From: Naegleria gruberi
Lineage: Eukaryota
Length of the DNA: 64,000 bases
Reading direction: 5' to 3' (one strand)
Assembly (NCBI GenBank): GCA_000004985.1
Contig: GG738857.1
Position 1 is the first letter of the stretch; the number at the start of each line of letters is the position of its first letter. The position numbers and the translations under genes were made by a program. Below the pieces are notes generated by a model. The model worked only from the letters and a program-made list of their open reading frames with translations. It was not told the origin of the DNA and ran no database searches. Positions 3,608 to 62,833 of this stretch are shown piece by piece.

Positions 3608-4756
3608 ATGGGCAATCATCATAGCACCAGAAATAACCCGCCAAATTTTCATTCTTCGAAGAATCCAAAAAAACAAAACAACAAACAGCAGCGACACTCT
3701 ACCGGCGATTGTAGTGCAACAATAACAACAAATTCTTGCAAGAATGTAAAAGTTCAAGCAACATCATTATCGGCTGCTTCTGTTGGACAACATCATCCAC
3801 TGGTGAAACCTTTGGCTTTGAATTTACTTCAACAACAACAACAACAAAATGTTGGTTCGGGAGATTGTAAGCAGTCGAGTAGTTGGCAATATCAGCACTT
3901 GATGAGGGAAGATTCGAGAAGATCGACCGTAACAGAGAATGAAGGAAGTTTTTCTCTTGGTAATAATGGTCGTCAATTGTTGGTCGATTTTCATGCTAGT
4001 GCCAAGACTCCACGTCACGTAAGAACTATTATTGATGATGAAGAGGATGATAACATTGAAGAATCGTTTGTAATGATGAGATCTGGAATGATTTATTCAC
4101 ATGATGCTGATAATGGAGAACAATGTGAGAATCCGCAGGCTTCTCCTTCCTCAGTAAGAACTGCCAACATACCAATTCATTCACACATCCACACACAATT
4201 ACCGACCTCTCCTGTTTCACCTCATTCTGATAAGAAAGCTTCCTCCATGCCAAACCTTGGTGTTAATTCTCCATCTCCTAAGAAAAAGCAAGCTCTCAAA
4301 TTGCTTGCCAAAATCAAGAACAAATTCCATCACACCAATAGTGAACGAACAAGTCCTACTGCCTTACAACCTTCCTTGTCAGACAGTGCTCTTTCTTCTC
4401 GTTCTGCTGCCTCTTGTAATAACATTCAACAACAATTATCGAGTTCTTCCCTTTTAAAGATTGATTCCCATCGTTCTATACAATCCTATGCTACAACTAA
4501 TTCCAACAATAATTCATCTGCCACCTTGGTTACTAATGGTCAACCAAACCATAAACCATTGAAAATGAACGAAGATGGTGAGTATGTTGATGAAGATACA
4601 TACTCTAATAGTAGCAGTGAGAGCTTGGACGTCTCTGATAGCGAGCATGGAGACGACGAGGATTACATTGAACAATTTATTCAAGGTACTATGGTACAAA
4701 CCATTGATGATTCCATTTCCTACCTTAAAAATTCAATGAGAAATCAATTGGCTTAA
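3608..4756 (+). CDS. Low-complexity Ser/Asn/Gln-rich protein with acidic C-terminus; N-terminal MGNHHS (possible N-myristoylation)
   Basis: The track ORF 3512-4756 starts on TTG. The first in-frame ATG is 3608 (MGNHHSTRNN...), preceded by an A/C-rich leader. TAA stop at 4754-4756. Function unknown. Confidence 0.4.
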   Translation: MGNHHSTRNNPPNFHSSKNPKKQNNKQQRHSTGDCSATITTNSCKNVKVQATSLSAASVGQHHPLVKPLALNLLQQQQQQNVGSGDCKQSSSWQYQHLMREDSRRSTVTENEGSFSLGNNGRQLLVDFHASAKTPRHVRTIIDDEEDDNIEESFVMMRSGMIYSHDADNGEQCENPQASPSSVRTANIPIHSHIHTQLPTSPVSPHSDKKASSMPNLGVNSPSPKKKQALKLLAKIKNKFHHTNSERTSPTALQPSLSDSALSSRSAASCNNIQQQLSSSSLLKIDSHRSIQSYATTNSNNNSSATLVTNGQPNHKPLKMNEDGEYVDEDTYSNSSSESLDVSDSEHGDDEDYIEQFIQGTMVQTIDDSISYLKNSMRNQLA

Positions 4757-30872: not shown

Positions 30873-32891
30873 TTATTTATCCCTATTCAATTTCAACAAT
30901 TCCAACTCTTTCAACTCAGAATCAATTTCCTCTCTCTTTGTATCAATCACTTTTTGCCTCATGAGAATTCTTCCCTTCTCATAATGTTGATCGTCACATC
31001 TTTTCAATTCATAGGTCCAACCAAACAATGACAATGAATAGATAATCCATTTGCCAGGATCGAAATGATACCAACGAACTCCATTTCTATAATCGTATGC
31101 AAATGTGTGATGGAAATTGTGATATCCCTCACCAAATGTTAACAAGCTCACAAAATATGAGTCACGAGCTGTGTGATCGTCGTTGAATGTGGCATCTCCC
31201 CATGAGTGAGCTAAACTATTGATAAAGAAGGTACAATGTTGGAGAATGGTTTTGGATAAAACTCCGGCAATGAGGAAACCACCTTTCCAATCTCCCCAAA
31301 AGTATCCTGCAACGAAAGTTGGACAAACGTAGCCAAAGAAGATGGCCAAATAGGGATAGTATTTGTGTTGGAAGACACAGTATGGATCACTTGTTAAATC
31401 GGGAATATTTGAGTGGTCAACTGGACGATTTTTCATTAACCAACCCATGTGAGCATGAAAGAATGAATTCTTGATATTGTAAGGATCTCTTTCAGTATCA
31501 ATGAACTTGTGATGTCTTCTGTGATCACTATATGAAATTTAGAAATAGTTTCGAATAGAATAAACTTACCTAGACCAACTAATGGCACTTCCTTGAAAGG
31601 CAGCACTTCCAATCAAGAGAAACGCCAAGCGAACAGGAAGATTAGCCTTACACGACAAGTGAGCAAAGAATCTATGATAACCAGTTGAAATTCCAATACC
31701 AGACGAATACATGGAAACAAAGCTCAATAAATATGTTTTCCAATTGAATGGACATGTGAAAATTCCATAAATGGAAACAATGATAGAGCCAATCAAGTAG
31801 ATGGAAATGATATAGTCAATATTACGTAAATCTAAATAATCGACAATATCTGAATAATCGTATTCATGTTGGTTTCCATTAAATGAGACGAAATCTAACC
31901 ATGTAATAGAATCAGATTTTCTACCACCAATCAATTCCAATTGCTTTCCAAACTTTTCTTCCAAAACCTTAACGCTTTCTCTCCATTTAGTTTGTGGAAC
32001 AGCAGCTGAGAGTTTACAAAGCAATTGATCTTTAACTTCAATTGTTTTGTAAAAGTGTCCATACCATTTAAAGGCAATTTTGTAATTATTCAAAGAATAA
32101 CTAGTCAAGAATTCGATAATCAAAGGAAGAGAAACAACACCAGTGAATTCTTCACCCTTCTTCTTATTGGCCTCGTTCATCTTCATCATGATTGAGTTGA
32201 TCAAATGGAAAGCCATCAATGGAGCCAAGTAATATTTAAACAAAGTCCAGAATCCACCAAACCAAACCATGAAATAGGTAAAGAAAGATGCGAATAGAAT
32301 CAAGACAATGGAATTGGTAATCTTATTGAAAGTATTTCCTTTTGTGTCAAAGTAAATATTGGTAACAATGCATTCCCAAATTGAGGTAAAGAACCAGAGA
32401 GGACTCTTTGCTAATTTGAGCATGGCACCAAACATGAAGTGTGGTTGTGAACTTTCTTGTGGATAGGTCTTGAGATATTTCACATTTTCGAATGGATACA
32501 ACAATGGCAACATGCAAACTAAACCAACCAATTGGTTAAGCCATTCAGGAAGTGTCTTGACATTGAAGAATTGATTAGTGGAACAACCATACGCAACAGA
32601 AACCAATCGACAAGCACAAAATCCCAAGAAAATCCAACAAATTGGAAGTAAATACCAAGGAATGTTTACAACAAACAAAACACCAATGAGAATTAAGAGT
32701 AAAGTCATGGACAATTGGATGGCAGCTTTGAAATTTGAAGGGGTAAAGCTACCTTCTACATGTTTCAGAGCTTCATTATGAAGAATGGAATCTTCACTAT
32801 TGGCAGCAAACTCAGTTTTTACACTGGCAGCTGTCAGAGAGGTAACAGATGACATTTTTTTGGGATGATATTGAGGATAATAATCACTCAT
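30873..32891 (-). CDS. Acyl-CoA delta-9 desaturase (stearoyl-CoA desaturase family) fused to a ~330-aa multi-TM N-terminal domain of unknown family; join(complement(31570..32891),complement(30873..31527))
   Basis: Three histidine boxes in SCD order: GYHRFFAH, WSSDHRRHHKF (restored by removing a 42-nt GTAAGT...TATAG intron at 31528-31569), HNFHHTFAYDY. The N-terminal ~330 aa upstream of desaturase TM1/TM2 form one continuous frame from ATG 32891. Confidence 0.75.
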
Positions 32892-33478: not shown

Positions 33479-34531
33479 ATGGAAAGACCCCAATGTGGAG
33501 GGTTTATAAATTTTGAAAATGTAAGCAATTTAACAAAACTAGAAGCAAAGAGTATTCCCAAATATATATATGCAAAATTCAACTCTTCTCTAAGGGAATT
33601 GCACCTGTCAATGTCATCTTTCAATCTAGACAATAATTTTGATAATTTGAAAAAATTGGAACTCATCAATGTTGGAAATTTATTAAGAGCCACCAGCACT
33701 ACATTTCCCTCCTTGGAATATGCCTATTGTACGAATTGTAATTTTTCCTTTAATGGAATTGAGTTTTTTTCCCAAAGCAAAAATTTGAAGAATTTGATTT
33801 TGAGGTGGTGTGATCTAGGAAAGGTGGAAACAGCCGAATTTCATTGTAGAGAATTGGAAGAATTGGATCTGACTACTGAGAATCCAATTAATCTTGATCT
33901 TTCGACATTGAGAGGACTAAACTTGAAGAAGCTCACAATTTATCCGAAATATATCAATAACCAAATAGATCTTTCCGTAATTGAGCAAATGGCAAGTTTG
34001 GAATATCTGAATTTAGGCGAATATTATGAAAATCTATCATTTTCCCAATTGACCAAATTGAATTATTTAGAATTTCGAAAAATTCGCATTTCAAAAAAGA
34101 ATCTAAAGGTAGAAAATTTGCTTTATGAAAATTTACTAAGAAATTGCGTCATTTACTTTAATAGTATAACCATTGAAGAGCATTGCATGCCATTTCCAAT
34201 TTTATTCGAAAGTGGAACTTTGGAAGGATCATTATTCGAATTAATTGCTTTGAAATTGAGAGAGCTCTGTATTGGTGTGAAAGGTGTGAAATTTGCCTTA
34301 ATGTCAGAGAAATTTATCTATGTTTCGTTTAATAGACAATCAAAGAATAAGCTATATTCGTATCCAAGTTTTATTCTATTCGAAACTGAAAGTCCGAACA
34401 GAATTTTGGAGCACAGAAGAAGTTTGGAAAAGAAACAAGAATTTTTTAATTTTACATCAAGTATCGAATATTTAATGCAACTGAAAAATTATTCTACTGT
34501 ACGAAATGGACGAAAGTGTGAAATTCAGTGA
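33479..34531 (+). CDS. LRR-like protein, paralog of the 35361-36497 gene
   Basis: Shares LELINVGN...FPSLEYAYCTNCNFSFNGIEFFSQSKNLKNLILRWCDL and the C-terminal ...RKCEIQ* with its paralog. Leucine-rich periodicity. The 5' end may be affected by the upstream gap. Confidence 0.5.
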   Translation: MERPQCGGFINFENVSNLTKLEAKSIPKYIYAKFNSSLRELHLSMSSFNLDNNFDNLKKLELINVGNLLRATSTTFPSLEYAYCTNCNFSFNGIEFFSQSKNLKNLILRWCDLGKVETAEFHCRELEELDLTTENPINLDLSTLRGLNLKKLTIYPKYINNQIDLSVIEQMASLEYLNLGEYYENLSFSQLTKLNYLEFRKIRISKKNLKVENLLYENLLRNCVIYFNSITIEEHCMPFPILFESGTLEGSLFELIALKLRELCIGVKGVKFALMSEKFIYVSFNRQSKNKLYSYPSFILFETESPNRILEHRRSLEKKQEFFNFTSSIEYLMQLKNYSTVRNGRKCEIQ

Positions 34532-35302: not shown

Positions 35303-35360
35303 AGAAATCAATGTCATATATTCCATTCCTTAAATTGAGTTTAAATTGAATAGTAATCTT

Positions 35361-36497
35361 ATGATGGATTGTTTGGAAAGTATTTCCCAAAATTCGAAGG
35401 ATTTATCTTTGATATTGGAAGATGGAAATCTCATGTCCGATCAATTGAAATTGGATCAATTGAGGAATTTGTCAAAGTTAGAGATTGATTACCTGCCTTC
35501 CTTTGTTACCGTGATGAATCCGCATCTAGTTGAGTTGCAAGTTGGAAGTCTTTTGAACAACAATTTCTTTAACAGAACATTGACCAATACGTTGCTTTTG
35601 AAAAGTACATTTTATAATTTGAAAAGATTGGAACTAACCAACGTTGGAAATATGTCAGAAGCTCCTACCTATGTATTTCCCTCTTTAGAATATGTCTATT
35701 GTTTGGATTGTGATTTTGGTAGTGGAATTGATTTCTTTTCGAATAGTACAAAATTGAAGAGTTTAATTTTGATATGGTGTAAATTTAAGATTCTATCAAA
35801 AACTAAATTTCAATGTCAAGGATTGGAAGAATTGAATATTTCCACAACTAGTCCACACAAATTCTTCGATGTTTCCACATTGAAAGGACTACAACTAAGG
35901 AAACTAAATATTTATCCTGTAGGTATCACTGGCGTTAGTCCAGTAACAACAGCTGATCTTTCAGCAATCGAAGAAATGACGAGTTTGGAACATTTAACAT
36001 TTGGAGAATATATTGAGAAATTTTCATTTGCCAAATTGACCAATTTGAAATACCTACAGTTTCGTAAAAGTTTTGCATTTGTAGGAATTCTATCATTAAG
36101 CTCATATGAACACTTACTTCATAATTGTGTCATTTACTTTGACGTTGCAGCATCTGATGTTCCTGTACCTGCTTTTTCAGAAAATGGAAGAGTTATTGTT
36201 AATTCATCCACTTGTCGATTAATTGCTTCCAAATTGAAAGAGCTCAATATTAGTGTGAATGGTGTGAAATTTGTAATAATGACACCAACGTACATTTACG
36301 TTACTTTCAATATGCAATCAAGGAAACAATCTCATTATTCCTATCCTAGTTTTATTCTATTCGAAAGCAAACAACCACACACAATTGTAGCCAGCGGAAG
36401 AAGTTTGGAAAAGAAGATGGAAGTACCAAAAATCACCATTGATTATTTAATGAATTTAAAGTTTGAAACTAATGAAAAAAAATGTGAAATTCAATAA
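35361..36497 (+). CDS. LRR-like protein, paralog of 33479-34531
   Basis: The track ORF starts on TTG at 35346; the first ATG is 35361 (MMDCLESISQ...). Conserved blocks LELTNVGN...FPSLEYVYCLDCDFGSGIDFFSNSTKLKSLILIWCKF and C-terminal KKCEIQ*. Confidence 0.5.
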   Translation: MMDCLESISQNSKDLSLILEDGNLMSDQLKLDQLRNLSKLEIDYLPSFVTVMNPHLVELQVGSLLNNNFFNRTLTNTLLLKSTFYNLKRLELTNVGNMSEAPTYVFPSLEYVYCLDCDFGSGIDFFSNSTKLKSLILIWCKFKILSKTKFQCQGLEELNISTTSPHKFFDVSTLKGLQLRKLNIYPVGITGVSPVTTADLSAIEEMTSLEHLTFGEYIEKFSFAKLTNLKYLQFRKSFAFVGILSLSSYEHLLHNCVIYFDVAASDVPVPAFSENGRVIVNSSTCRLIASKLKELNISVNGVKFVIMTPTYIYVTFNMQSRKQSHYSYPSFILFESKQPHTIVASGRSLEKKMEVPKITIDYLMNLKFETNEKKCEIQ

Positions 36498-59181: not shown

Positions 59182-62100
59182 ATGCAACAATTTGTAAAGC
59201 GAGCAAAGAGTAGGGAGAATGGAAGGGATGGCCAACTGTAAGTGTTTTGGTGTGTTTAGAATAATAATTATTGATGTTTCGAATAGTGGTCAAAGAGGTG
59301 AAAATGGTCATGTAAGTTAAAACTAAAGATATTCATCATACATTATTGATGTGCATAGACTGGAAGACACGGTGCTCACGGATATGGTCATGGAGGGAAT
59401 GGCTATCACGGAGAAAGGTAAATTAAACTAATATTTAACTAAAATATCTTCAAAAAGAGGAGGCAATGGATTTAACGCAACCAATGCTTGGCATGGTGAG
59501 AATGGTGAAGATGCAAAACACGGCAAAGATATTCACATTCTATTGGAAGGTGATGTCATGTCAACTGTTGTTGTGAGTGGTGACTTTAGTTATGGAGGAG
59601 GTGTTTGTGAGATGGTTTGTGTATCAGAGGGAGGAAAGTAAGTTTAGCTTTAAATGCACATGTATTGAAATTAATATTCGAAAGTGGTGGAAATGGTGGA
59701 AAGTAAGTTTGGTTTTGTGAATAATGTTATTAATTTACAAAAAAAATAGTGGTGGAAAGGGAGGCGAGTAAGTAGAAGAATTCCTATAGTTCTGTATTCT
59801 AATTTCGAATAGTGGTGGAGCTGGTGGTCAGTAAGTTTTACTTTAATTTCTATTCGAAATGAACATTTGAAAAAGAGGTGGAATAGGAGGTGCTGGTTCA
59901 CAAGGTAAAAGAGGTGCACCAGGTCAAAATGGAGAAAGGTAAGCAATTATTCTTAACATTAGATTCTAATATTAATATTCGAAATGTAGAGGTGGAAATG
60001 GTGGCAAGTAAGTTTTACATTTTGCAATTATACGAATCAATTCAGTGGTGGAGAGTAAGTTTTTCAAAATTTCATTAAAATTCACTTTTCAAGTGGTGGA
60101 GAGTAAGTAAGAAAGTCTTTTTTAAACTTTATTCGAAACTAATTAGTGGTGGCCATGGAGGAAAGTAAGTTGTTCCTTAATTTTGTAAACAATTTTTACA
60201 CAAACAAGTGGAGGAAATGGTGGCAGGTAAGTTGAAAAAAGGAAATTTCATATTCAAATAACCTTTCGAATAGAGGAGGAAATGGTGGAAATGGAGGATC
60301 AGTCTATATTGACACCACCAATCCATATTTATTGAATTATATTGAAGGAACGAGTATTTCAGGAAGAGGAGGATCTGGTGGTAGAGGTGGAAATGGAGGA
60401 ATTGGTGGCAGTGGTGGAAGGTAAGTGAACTTTCGAATATGTTGAAATTGCAACCTGTTTAAAAGTCCTGGAGAGGGTGGACATGCTGGAAAGGGAGGTG
60501 ATCCAGGTGATCCAATCACCATTACTAGAACTCTTCCAGATAATAGAGTTCACACAGAAATTAAGAGATTTCATCATGGACCAGATGGATCAAAAGGTTA
60601 CAGAGGAAAACAAGGAAAATCTGGAACTAATGGTCAATCAGGACAATCAGGACAACAAGGAACTGATGGAGTTTGTGGAGCTGTCATGTACAGAGTTCTT
60701 GATCCATTCACTAAAATGGTCATTGAACAATCAGCTAAAAAGTACAAACTCAAAGTTATTGATTTTTCATTTGTTCCATTAATTGATGATGGAATTTTGG
60801 AACCAGGAGAACAAGCCAAGATTACAAATTTTGTAATTAAGAATGAAGGTGGATTGACTGCTCCTGCAGGTGCTGAGGTTTCATTGACTGGTGATGGATT
60901 TACTGTTTGTAATATTCCAAAATTCATTCTTCCACAACCAATCGTGCCAGGTCAAGTAATTACTATCACTGATCAGGAATTTCTTGTCCGAGTTGAAGAA
61001 AGAATGAATAAGGAACCAAGAAATTTTGGATCTTTTGCTGCCAATGTCAGATTGAATACTCCAACTAAATATTATGATAAGAAACATGCTAAGGGATGTG
61101 AGAAGAATTTCACAGCAAGACTTCCATTGGCAATTGAATATGCCAACTGTACAAAGGCAATGGATAAACTTCAAAGAGGAATAATGAAGGTTGGTGTGAA
61201 GAATTTGGCAACATTACCTTATGGATCTATGAGTCAATCGATGGTTTGTCAAGTTGGATTGAAAATTGATTTTGATCCAAGAATGGTTGTTTTCCCAGAG
61301 TTGATTCCTAATGCAACAATGGTTGAACCAACCAGTCTCTATATTGAAATTCCAAATTTAATGGCTCTTTCATGTTTGGAACATAATATTGAGTTTGCAT
61401 TCACTGATAGAGTTAATTATTTCGACACCTTGTACTATTCCATTTCTCTTATTTATAAGGGAGAACAAATTGAAAAGCATCTGATGGATGTGAGAATGGC
61501 TCCTTCCTATATGCCTTCACCTCAAGGAGAAAATACATACGATGTCATTTTCTTTACTAATTCTCATATTAATAATGTGGAATTTATGAATTATATGAGA
61601 ATATTTGATGGATTAGCATTGAGAGTTAATTTCTGGGATATTCAAATTAATCAAGGATTGAGTTTCTTCAATAATGATGGAAGAACCAGACATCCAATTA
61701 CTTGGACCAATGATAATCAAGGAAAGGTAATTGTTTATCCAATGGCAAATGATATGGAATATCAACTCATGTTCTCCCATGATATTGTCAATATTGTAAA
61801 GCCAAATCCAGAAAACAAATTATTAGAAGGTGGAATAATTCTAGTTGGTAATGTAACCAATCAACAATTTATTGCCCATTTGAGAACTGCTTCAACAGAA
61901 GTCAAAATTCCAGACGATTCCATCTCTGACAGCTATGTCATTTCAAAGCCAGTTCGTGATCATTTAACTCAAAAATCCAATGAATACATTAAGAAGGTTG
62001 CAGTTACCAAACCAGCTCAGAATTTAGTACTTGGCAGAACTGTTTTCAATCCAAAGAAAATTGGTTCATTCAAAACGCTTTTAGGAGAAGCTTATTATTT

Positions 62101-62833
62101 GGAATTTGGTTTGTTGGCCAATGCCAATTGTTATGCCATCAATTCCAACTCTGCAAACTTCCTCTCACAACAAAGATCAGCCACTCTGTCCACACTCTCC
62201 GGTGTAGGTCAAATGACCATGTCAATCTTGTTGGCTCTTCCACTTCCAAAATTGTTGTACATTTTGAGAAATCCAACAGAATGGCTCAAGACAACAAGAT
62301 TTTACAATGAGTACAAATCTACTGAACAAGGATATTACGAATTGATTGCCTGTGCCTTGTATTGTAAGATTTATCATTCCATTATTTTGAATAGCAAATT
62401 GGAAGAGAATTTGAATTATATTTTACAAGAGTTTGAAAAGCAAACCTCCAATTATGAGAAGAATCCTGAAAAGATTGCCATTTGTGAAGCTCTCTTGTTG
62501 GCTTTCCATCATTTGGGTTCTCAAATCAAGTGGAAAGTTTCACTTTTTAAGAGCTTACCACAAAAAGATTCGTTTGACAAGTTTATGGAATCATTTTCAC
62601 AAGTTTTATCAAAGATTATTGGAGATCCTAATCATGTTAAGAATTTAAAGAAGAATCTTCCAACTATGATTAAGGATTTGGGAAGAGAAAATTATCTTCA
62701 CATTTTGGCAAGTATTCACAGACTTGTCTATGATCAATATCATAAGGCCATTGAGGATGAAATAAGATTGAAGGAAAAGACAGGTCTATTCGCATCAGTT
62801 TCGACTGATTCTCCTGTTAATTATTTAGATTAG
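59182..62833 (+). CDS. Collagen-like / glycine-rich protein with large C-terminal domain of unknown family; 15 exons including nine micro-exons of 9-18 nt; join(59182..59237,59287..59311,59359..59417,59458..59637,59695..59712,59750..59767,59813..59830,59876..59938,59990..60007,60046..60054,60094..60102,60147..60164,60209..60226,60274..60420,60466..62833)
   Basis: Every proposed exon is flanked by AG| and |GTAAGT (or GTAAGC/GTAAAT). All intron phases are mutually consistent across the array. The spliced frame enters the 715-aa ORF 60686-62833 in the correct phase. Exons encode GxGGxGG / G-X-Y units (GQRGENGH, GRHGAHGYGHGGNGYHGE, NGGNGGK, GGKGGE, GGAGGQ, GGIGGAGSQGKRGAPGQNGE, PGEGGHAGKGGDPGDP, GSKGYRGKQGKSGTNGQSGQSGQQGTDG). 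TAG stop at 62831-62833. Confidence 0.65.

Follow-up and report, generated by a model that had tools for sequence, protein, structure and literature searches.

Ten phase-2 introns in a glycine block of fixed length: a micro-exon array of Naegleria gruberi that most likely predates the split from N. lovaniensis

Exons of collagen genes, described by Yamada et al. in 1980, are reportedly 54 bp in length and built of 9-bp Gly-X-Y units, and the spider flagelliform silk gene (Flag), the subject of a study by Hayashi and Lewis in 2000, is said to carry tandemly repeated modules of exon plus intron. The SRRM4-dependent micro-exons of neurons are accompanied by intronic enhancers of the UGC type beside the 3' splice site. 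The micro-exon genes (MEGs) of Schistosoma contain runs of symmetrical micro-exons, with lengths in multiples of 3 and a single flanking phase, in-frame skipping being possible (PMC4350168). The bicycle genes of aphids also contain many micro-exons, with nearly all internal exons in phase 2, and their structure is better conserved than their sequence (PMC9168663). Here we describe a micro-exon array of Naegleria gruberi, located at positions 59638-60273 of a 64,000-nt stretch of contig GG738857.1 (hereafter the window), within the 5' part of the gene NAEGRDRAFT_79042 (XP_002679508.1, annotated as 'predicted protein', 1001 aa). A literature search yielded no description of this architecture in Naegleria, and nothing relevant on the Pfam family DUF7932, Naegleria intron motifs or the sequence TTCGAA. 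Among the genes of the related species N. lovaniensis, only 47% contain any intron (PMC6125883). The observations below make it probable that introns of the Naegleria lineage colonised a pre-existing glycine repeat of fixed length, giving an old array on top of which a younger 9-mer of N. gruberi is superimposed.

The spliced reading frame of NAEGRDRAFT_79042 runs uninterrupted between the ATG at 59182 and the stop codon at 62831-62833, and removal of 14 GT..AG introns restores 1007 codons. This revised model consists of the public model of the Joint Genome Institute (JGI; P0006/XP_002679508.1) plus a single 18-nt exon at 59685-59702, and is otherwise identical. The donor is GTAAG(T/C) in 13 of the 14 introns and GTAAAT in the remaining one; all 14 are located in glycine-rich coding sequence, and 13 are in the same phase (phase 2). 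Since a phase-2 intron with the donor GTAAGT reads xxG TAA, a retained intron stops translation, and read-through of any of the 14 leads to an in-frame stop within 1-2 codons. The interval 59638-60273 contains exactly ten of these introns, all GTAAG(T/C)...AG, 38-51 nt in length and in phase 2, separated by exons of 18, 18, 18, 63, 18, 9, 9, 18 and 18 nt. All of these lengths are multiples of 3, and each exon-intron unit is an in-frame module of a single phase, in agreement with the original prediction made from the sequence. Its statement that the exons measure 9-18 nt applies to eight of them, each flanked by phase-2 introns, and not to the exon of 63 nt, which is not a micro-exon. The spacing from donor to donor is 65, 65, 63, 108, 69, 47, 48, 62 and 62 nt, the value of 108 spanning the 63-nt exon.

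With respect to the protein, the ten introns divide a block of 75 residues, (Gly-Gly-X)25, and each is inserted after the second base of an X codon, in the shared context ..RA^TGGTGG. The micro-exons make up about 135 of the 3024 coding nt, and the last exon alone has 2368 nt. The concentration of introns is high: 14 are found in the first 1.3 kb of the gene versus about 11 putative ones in the other ~60 kb of the window, and 12 of the 25 GTAAGT sequences on both strands of the window are donors of NAEGRDRAFT_79042. The features of the gene are as follows, with the occurrence of a 9-mer, TATTCGAAA, and its reverse complement, TTTCGAATA, indicated for each intron.

59182..62833, plus strand: NAEGRDRAFT_79042; 15 exons, 14 introns, 1007 aa in the revised model.
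59238..59286, plus strand: intron 1; 49 nt, phase 2; 3' end TTTCGAATAG, with the reverse-orientation 9-mer at 59277-59285.
59312..59358, plus strand: intron 2; 47 nt, phase 0; without motif.
59418..59457, plus strand: intron 3; 40 nt, phase 2, GTAAAT donor; without motif.
59638..59684, plus strand: intron 4; 47 nt, phase 2; TATTCGAAA at 59675-59683, adjoining the 3' splice site; no intron here in N. lovaniensis.
59685..59702, plus strand: micro-exon GGNGGN; 18 nt, canonical splice sites; its inclusion gives a gap-free 75-residue alignment with homologues.
59703..59749, plus strand: intron 5; 47 nt, phase 2; without motif; position common to N. lovaniensis.
59750..59767, plus strand: micro-exon GGKGGD; 18 nt.
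59768..59812, plus strand: intron 6; 45 nt, phase 2; TTTCGAATA at 59803-59811, the next base, G, completing TAG; N. lovaniensis without an intron here.
59813..59830, plus strand: micro-exon GGAGGQ; 18 nt.
59831..59875, plus strand: intron 7; 45 nt, phase 2; TATTCGAAA at 59851-59859, mid-intron; position common to N. lovaniensis.
59876..59938, plus strand: 63-nt exon; 7 triplets with the central linker GGIGGAGSQGKRGAPGQNGER; an exon of the same size in N. lovaniensis.
59939..59989, plus strand: intron 8; 51 nt, phase 2, GTAAGC donor; TATTCGAAA at 59976-59984; position common to N. lovaniensis.
59990..60007, plus strand: micro-exon GGNGGN; 18 nt.
60008..60045, plus strand: intron 9; 38 nt, phase 2; degenerate TACGAAT at 60031-60037; position common to N. 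lovaniensis.
60046..60054, plus strand: micro-exon GGD, TGGTGGAGA; 9 nt.
60055..60093, plus strand: intron 10; 39 nt, phase 2; without motif; position common to N. lovaniensis.
60094..60102, plus strand: micro-exon GGD, TGGTGGAGA; 9 nt.
60103..60146, plus strand: intron 11; 44 nt, phase 2; TATTCGAAA at 60130-60138; position common to N. lovaniensis.
60147..60164, plus strand: micro-exon GGHGGN; 18 nt.
60165..60208, plus strand: intron 12; 44 nt, phase 2; without motif; match to N. lovaniensis conditional on a putative exon there (4227-4244 of its locus, L004).
60209..60226, plus strand: micro-exon GGNGGR; 18 nt.
60227..60273, plus strand: intron 13; 47 nt, phase 2; TTTCGAATA at 60264-60272; position common to N. 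lovaniensis.
60421..60465, plus strand: intron 14; 45 nt, phase 2; TTTCGAATA at 60431-60439, near the 5' end; position common to N. lovaniensis.

Splicing of the 9-nt exons would be feasible if the introns of 38-51 nt are recognised by intron definition. Downstream of the array, a third glycine-rich run (GRGGSGGRGGNGGIGGSGGS, 60362-60420), detected by Tandem Repeats Finder (TRF) as a 27-nt repeat, contains no internal intron and has intron 14 at its end, indicating that colonisation by introns was confined mainly to the 75-residue block.

The gene structure was compared with that of a second strain, represented by a metagenome contig in ENA (L001) which is 98.4% identical to the N. gruberi locus. 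The substitutions in exons were 21 synonymous and 3 conservative nonsynonymous ones, with no indel in any exon; all the indels were located in predicted introns, with five events, or in intergenic DNA. The micro-exon 59685-59702 is identical in L001. No competing open reading frame was found on either strand at the locus, and no Rfam match in the region. The micro-exon layout is genuine, and the architecture was shown to be under purifying selection.

The closest relative of the protein is XP_044550565 (P0132) of N. lovaniensis, with 38% identity over the full length as identified by HMMER search. Mapping of this protein back to its locus (L004) gave a gene with 16-17 introns, including five exons of 9 nt together with exons of 18, 27 and 63 nt, which start with TGGTGG or AGGAGG and are separated by phase-2 introns. 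The gene itself is the only match between the two species' loci in a synteny comparison. The N. lovaniensis annotation was produced by BRAKER1 with RNA-seq (PMC6125883). One of its annotated 'introns', of 180 nt, holds a candidate 18-nt exon, TGGGGGCTCAGGTGGCGA (L004 4227-4244), with a GTAGGT donor; when this putative exon is included, the block has 75 residues in 25 triplets and is aligned without gaps to that of N. gruberi. In this alignment the introns of N. gruberi follow triplets 1, 3, 5, 7, 14, 16, 17, 18, 20 and 22, and those of N. lovaniensis follow triplets 3, 4, 7, 14, 15, 16, 17, 18, 20 and 22, with an additional phase-1 intron in triplet 23. Eight of the ten positions coincide (P = 0.002 with 24 candidate sites, or P = 0.03 with only the 18 GGX boundaries), and the position of intron 14 is also common to both species. 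Based on this coincidence, the micro-exon architecture is most likely older than the divergence of N. gruberi and N. lovaniensis, and a few later gains, losses or one-triplet shifts of introns separate the two species.

The JGI model of N. gruberi and the NCBI model of N. lovaniensis each skip one 18-nt micro-exon of the type GGXGGX (59685-59702 and L004 4227-4244, respectively). Both exons are probably real, as favoured by the alignments with homologues, and both public gene models thus probably lack an 18-nt exon, a lesson for annotation. The omission could be an error of the predictors or could reflect cassette skipping, and it is the sole hint on alternative splicing. The N. lovaniensis model also includes a 5-nt exon, TGGAG (L004 4412-4416), with a phase-2 intron before and a phase-1 intron after it, which may be a very small exon if real, or else a modelling artefact.

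The protein family is large. A full HMMER scan identified 779 relatives with E up to 0.001, many aligned over about residues 10-810, and the N-terminal 397 residues gave 136 relatives, including many bacterial 'collagen-like' proteins with DUF7932 as well as the Adineta vaga protein and marine contigs. The family spans bacteria and several eukaryotic groups, and horizontal transfer may be part of its history. Residues 313-402 match DUF7932 (PF25560) at 40.1 bits against a cut-off of 27 (E = 5.6e-10); the score with Pfam Collagen, 23.5 bits, is under its cut-off of 27.2, and the family profile matches collagen chains only through the periodicity of glycine. The closest non-Naegleria relatives (33-34% identity) are on contigs L005 and L006 with eukaryotic neighbours, and bacteria account for many of the more distant ones. 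The explanation of 'young' introns by horizontal transfer from bacteria was considered and dropped, for the closest non-Naegleria relatives are on eukaryotic contigs. No related locus was found in JGI metagenomes by searches with the protein and then with the two-species alignment.

Among 28 homologues, the length of the glycine block is 74-76 residues in about half, which is the commonest class, and 57-71 in the rest; that of N. gruberi is 75. Examples with 74-76 residues are P0133, P0134, P0137, P0142, P0151, P0007 and P0012 of A. vaga, with P0133 from a eukaryotic metagenome contig (L005); a TARA contig also belongs to this class. Invariant glycine columns are found along the alignment, and the block is flanked by a hydrophobic strand (..CRGG) before and a conserved ..IxxxDPxLL strand after. 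In A. vaga residues 1-648 are encoded by one exon with no intron in the block; P0007, P0133 and P0135 are single open reading frames, also without introns in the block, and the contigs of P0133 and P0135 carry eukaryotic neighbours (cofilin, Frizzled-type receptors/7tm_2, MATH/TRAF). These intronless homologues with the same block indicate that the coding repeat already had its present number of triplets before the introns came.

In an AlphaFold2 model built with the 28 homologues (mean pLDDT 84.7), the glycine block is confidently modelled as ordered, at pLDDT 78-95, mostly around 90, without helix or strand by DSSP and with beta strands on either side; the block is followed by beta-sandwich domains in tandem and a C-terminal helical domain. 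Foldseek search with this model gave generic tandem beta-sandwich matches only (transglutaminase, integrin), none of them informative for the glycine block. The block may have a fold similar to polyglycine II, its composition being like that of polyglycine-II bundle proteins such as the snow-flea antifreeze protein. No obvious signal peptide was seen by inspection.

The similarity between units was then estimated at the nucleotide level. TRF detected no period of 45-65 nt, and only coding periodicities of 9 and 27 nt. Repeat families of about 21-40 nt, each made up of ~9 nt from the end of an intron, the micro-exon and GTAAGTTT, show identities of 60-86%. A tandem repeat of the units is thus detectable in the exons and the bases adjacent to the splice sites, and not beyond them. 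Upon alignment of the intron cores with the splice sites removed, the similarity was slightly above that of shuffled sequences (z = 2.1 for the mean pair and 2.8 for best partners), a marginal excess, and the interiors were not alignable. Introns 4 and 8 have a 14-mer in common, and the greatest similarity is that between introns 1 and 5. Orthologous pairs of N. gruberi and N. lovaniensis introns gave a mean local score of 8.8 versus 8.6 for non-orthologous pairs, indicating that intron sequence is saturated at this depth. The dissimilarity among the N. gruberi introns excludes recent duplication and leaves room for ancient copying of an intron-bearing unit. By eye, neither target-site duplications nor terminal inverted repeats form a consistent pattern at the intron borders.

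The hexamer TTCGAA is present in 8 of the 14 introns, that is, in 6 of the 10 array introns and in introns 1 and 14; about 0.15 were expected, and the maximum in 20,000 shuffles was 3. Its presence in intron 1 had been pointed out before, together with a 3' end 'ttcgaaatag', which is the end of no intron; intron 4 ends with ttcgaaag. All eight copies fit the strand-collapsed 9-mer, TATTCGAAA being found in introns 4, 7, 8 and 11 and TTTCGAATA in introns 1, 6, 13 and 14. Strand-collapsed 8-mers occur in 8 of the 14 introns with an experiment-wide P < 0.0005. The flanks, ATTCGAAA in four introns and TTTCGAAT in four, are reverse complements of each other; the fully palindromic forms (ATTCGAAT, TTTCGAAA) were not found in the introns of the gene, though the rest of the window has many of them. 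Part of the TAG acceptor of introns 1, 6 and 13 is the 'TA' flank itself, so that some of the apparent symmetry of the motif may stem from the splice site. The distances from the motif to the 3' splice site are 2, 3, 3, 3, 6, 9, 17 and 28 nt, and six of nine motif copies are at 9 nt or less. Eight of the nine CpG dinucleotides in the 628 nt of intron sequence are inside the motif, and the ninth is in the TACGAAT variant of intron 9; the window as a whole is CpG-depleted, with 751 CG versus 1407 GC dinucleotides. TTCGAA is over-represented overall in the window (48 copies versus 17-21 expected), 14 copies being located at 34.0-38.2 kb.

Of 11 other putative introns in the window, a single one has the motif.

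31528..31569, minus strand: putative intron of an unrelated gene; 42 nt; the only other putative intron of the window with TATTCGAAA.

This intron (31569-31528) shares 11-12-mers with introns 7 and 11, and no other putative intron of the window has such a 9-12-mer. An exact 18-mer of the same intron, TTTATTCTATTCGAAACT, is also found in the coding sequence of an open reading frame (34370-34387; blastn-short E = 2.6e-5), and a 16-mer in its tandem paralogue (36351-36366); the two reading frames are 33479-34531 and 35346-36497. Three open reading frames of the window are identical to proteins of N. gruberi NEG-M, encoded on a 573-kb scaffold. The window has a GC content of 32.7% and is gene-dense, mostly with genes of few or no introns; assembly gaps total 2138 N (about 33.35 kb and 50-52 kb), and the GC content of 50-52 kb is very low, 0.139.

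No TTCGAA was found in the N. lovaniensis introns of this gene. A motif TTGGAAT/ATTCCAA in 7 of 17 N. lovaniensis introns is marginal (P = 0.04), TTGGAA being a common hexamer, and was not relied on. Motif copies do not differ between the two N. gruberi strains, a comparison that is uninformative at about 2% divergence. The motif had been proposed as a possible lineage-specific branch point or splice enhancer. As a branch point, it is too close to the acceptor in the four introns where it lies 2-3 nt away, and the copy in intron 14 is near the 5' end; ordinary yTnAy-like branch candidates were seen by inspection upstream of the motif. As a 3' splice signal, it is contradicted by the single occurrence among 11 other putative introns of the window, by the absence from the N. 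lovaniensis introns and by the flanks in both orientations. Given its variable position, its rarity in other introns of the window and its absence from the N. lovaniensis orthologue, the motif is neither a branch point nor a genome-wide splice signal. The most likely interpretation is a cis-element specific to this gene, which may be a gene-specific splicing enhancer. Since intron sequence is saturated and motif-bearing introns occupy old positions common to both species, the motif must have been gained or preserved in the lineage of N. gruberi, which suggests selection or some active process and not descent from a founding unit.

Taken together, a probable course of events is that the (Gly-Gly-X)25 block existed, at fixed length, before any intron, and that short spliceosomal introns then entered it in the Naegleria lineage, always after the second base of an X codon, so that the exons of the block now have one, two or seven triplets each (9, 18 and 63 nt). 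One or a few gained introns would have been copied to neighbouring repeats by ectopic gene conversion or balanced unequal exchange, the number of repeats being unchanged, and the intron interiors would afterwards have diverged to saturation. Because the ten introns have one phase and one codon context, such copying between neighbouring repeats appears likelier than ten independent insertions. The 9-mer TATTCGAAA would represent a separate and younger layer, either an intronic RNA element, possibly including pairing between introns, or a cluster of DNA-binding sites.

Several points weigh against this interpretation. The public gene models of both species are predictions, although RNA-seq entered the N. 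lovaniensis annotation. The eight common positions depend on a gap-free alignment within a repetitive region and on the putative unannotated exon of N. lovaniensis, and in the alignment produced by MAFFT itself the register is off by one triplet. Positions would coincide, too, if introns had been inserted in parallel at favoured sites (with 18 sites, P is no lower than 0.03). The spread by gene conversion would have left no remaining sequence trace, and the control introns for the motif are few (11 heuristic calls, 994 nt, all within the window).

An unlikely alternative is the repeated and independent insertion of an introner-like element, marked by TATTCGAAA in either orientation and targeted to ...RA^TGGTGG, possibly in parallel in both lineages. 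The occurrence of the 9-mer in both orientations, the single sequence context of all insertion sites, the overlap of positions between species, of modest significance when only 18 sites are eligible, and the 9-mer in the unrelated intron at 31569-31528 with its 11-12-mers common to introns 7 and 11 are all in line with such an element. The similarity between introns, however, is only 9-14 nt, and neither terminal inverted repeats nor target-site duplications were seen at the junctions. Furthermore, the motif-bearing introns 7, 8, 11, 13 and 14 are at positions common to N. lovaniensis, where the introns of that species lack the motif, and so do 10 of the 11 other putative introns of the window.

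A more specific role for the motif is quite doubtful: TATTCGAAA and its reverse complement might be a cis-element specific to this gene of N. gruberi, forming intron-intron RNA duplexes of 9 bp or clustered DNA sites, which coordinates or regulates intron removal, including in-frame cassette skipping that tunes the length of the glycine block. Pairing of motif copies in the pre-mRNA was predicted for introns 6-7 (p = 0.63) and introns 11-13 (p = 0.91), but this outcome is expected by construction for complementary 9-mers, and is a lead, not evidence of function.

The original prediction proposed that the array grew by unequal crossing-over of intron-containing units; in the version considered here growth may still continue, and TTCGAA, as a lineage-specific branch point or splice enhancer, is passed on in every unit. 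The one phase and one codon context of the ten introns and the exon lengths in multiples of 9 fit this model, and so do the similarity reaching a few bases into both intron ends, the 14-mer of introns 4 and 8, and the likeness of introns 1 and 5. Nevertheless, the block of 75 residues has the commonest length among the intronless homologues measured; N. lovaniensis has the same 25 triplets when its unannotated exon is counted, with 8 of 10 intron positions in common; and the number of units is identical in strain L001 (~1.6% diverged). TRF found no period of unit length. The motif is variable in position and, in four introns, 2-3 nt from the acceptor; being absent from N. lovaniensis introns at common positions, it did not come down with the units. 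Growth by addition of intron-bearing units is largely refuted, and the model in its entirety is improbable. That the array is an annotation artefact, in the form of unspliced 'introns', a pseudogene or a mis-modelled low-complexity region, is barely credible: the structure comes from predicted models that each skip one 18-nt exon, but 14 consecutive canonical introns restore the 1007-codon frame, the spliced block is gap-free with homologues, the changes between strains respect the exons, the same architecture is present in N. lovaniensis, and the AlphaFold2 model is confident.

Under the preferred interpretation, colonisation of a pre-existing repeat, the locus provides a clean natural case for intron multiplication within a repeat, in which copying between repeats can be weighed against targeted insertion. 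Exons of 9 nt with introns of ~40 nt between them can be stably kept across species, and a CpG-containing 9-mer in a CpG-depleted genome is a testable element.

In comparison with the known systems, the exons of NAEGRDRAFT_79042 resemble those of collagen genes in being multiples of 9 nt that match a triplet repeat of the protein, with Gly in every third place. Exons of fibrillar collagens, however, are 45-162 nt in length and start with an intact Gly codon (phase 0), whereas those of the array are 9-18 nt and interrupted in phase 2 within the X codon; in addition, the Gly-X-Y repeat of collagen is rich in Pro, whereas the Gly-Gly-X repeat contains none. The introns of spider Flag are homogenised and more alike than the exons, but the intron interiors of NAEGRDRAFT_79042 are not alignable. 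Unlike a Flag-type array, the introns are not recognisably homologous, and the number of units is constant across L001 and N. lovaniensis (the putative exon counted). The short motif just upstream of micro-exon 3' splice sites is reminiscent of SRRM4-dependent enhancers, but is different from the UGC elements in having a palindromic core with reverse-complement flanks, in being located also mid-intron and near the 5' end, and in that its presence does not follow which introns precede micro-exons.

NAEGRDRAFT_79042 belongs to neither the MEG nor the bicycle family, while sharing features with both. As in MEGs, its micro-exons are symmetrical and of the same phase, and in all three kinds of gene each exon could be skipped in frame. 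The coding region of MEGs, however, is mostly micro-exonic, whereas here about 135 of 3024 nt are so organised, within a conserved block of fixed length in a large protein; and MEG products are secreted, fast-evolving parasite proteins with demonstrated variants by alternative splicing, whereas this protein is conserved and has no obvious signal peptide. The bicycle genes form a large family of insect salivary effectors with long introns, in contrast to a single protist gene with introns of 38-51 nt and intronless homologues. With these genes NAEGRDRAFT_79042 has in common the phase-2 micro-exons and a gene structure that outlasts its sequence.

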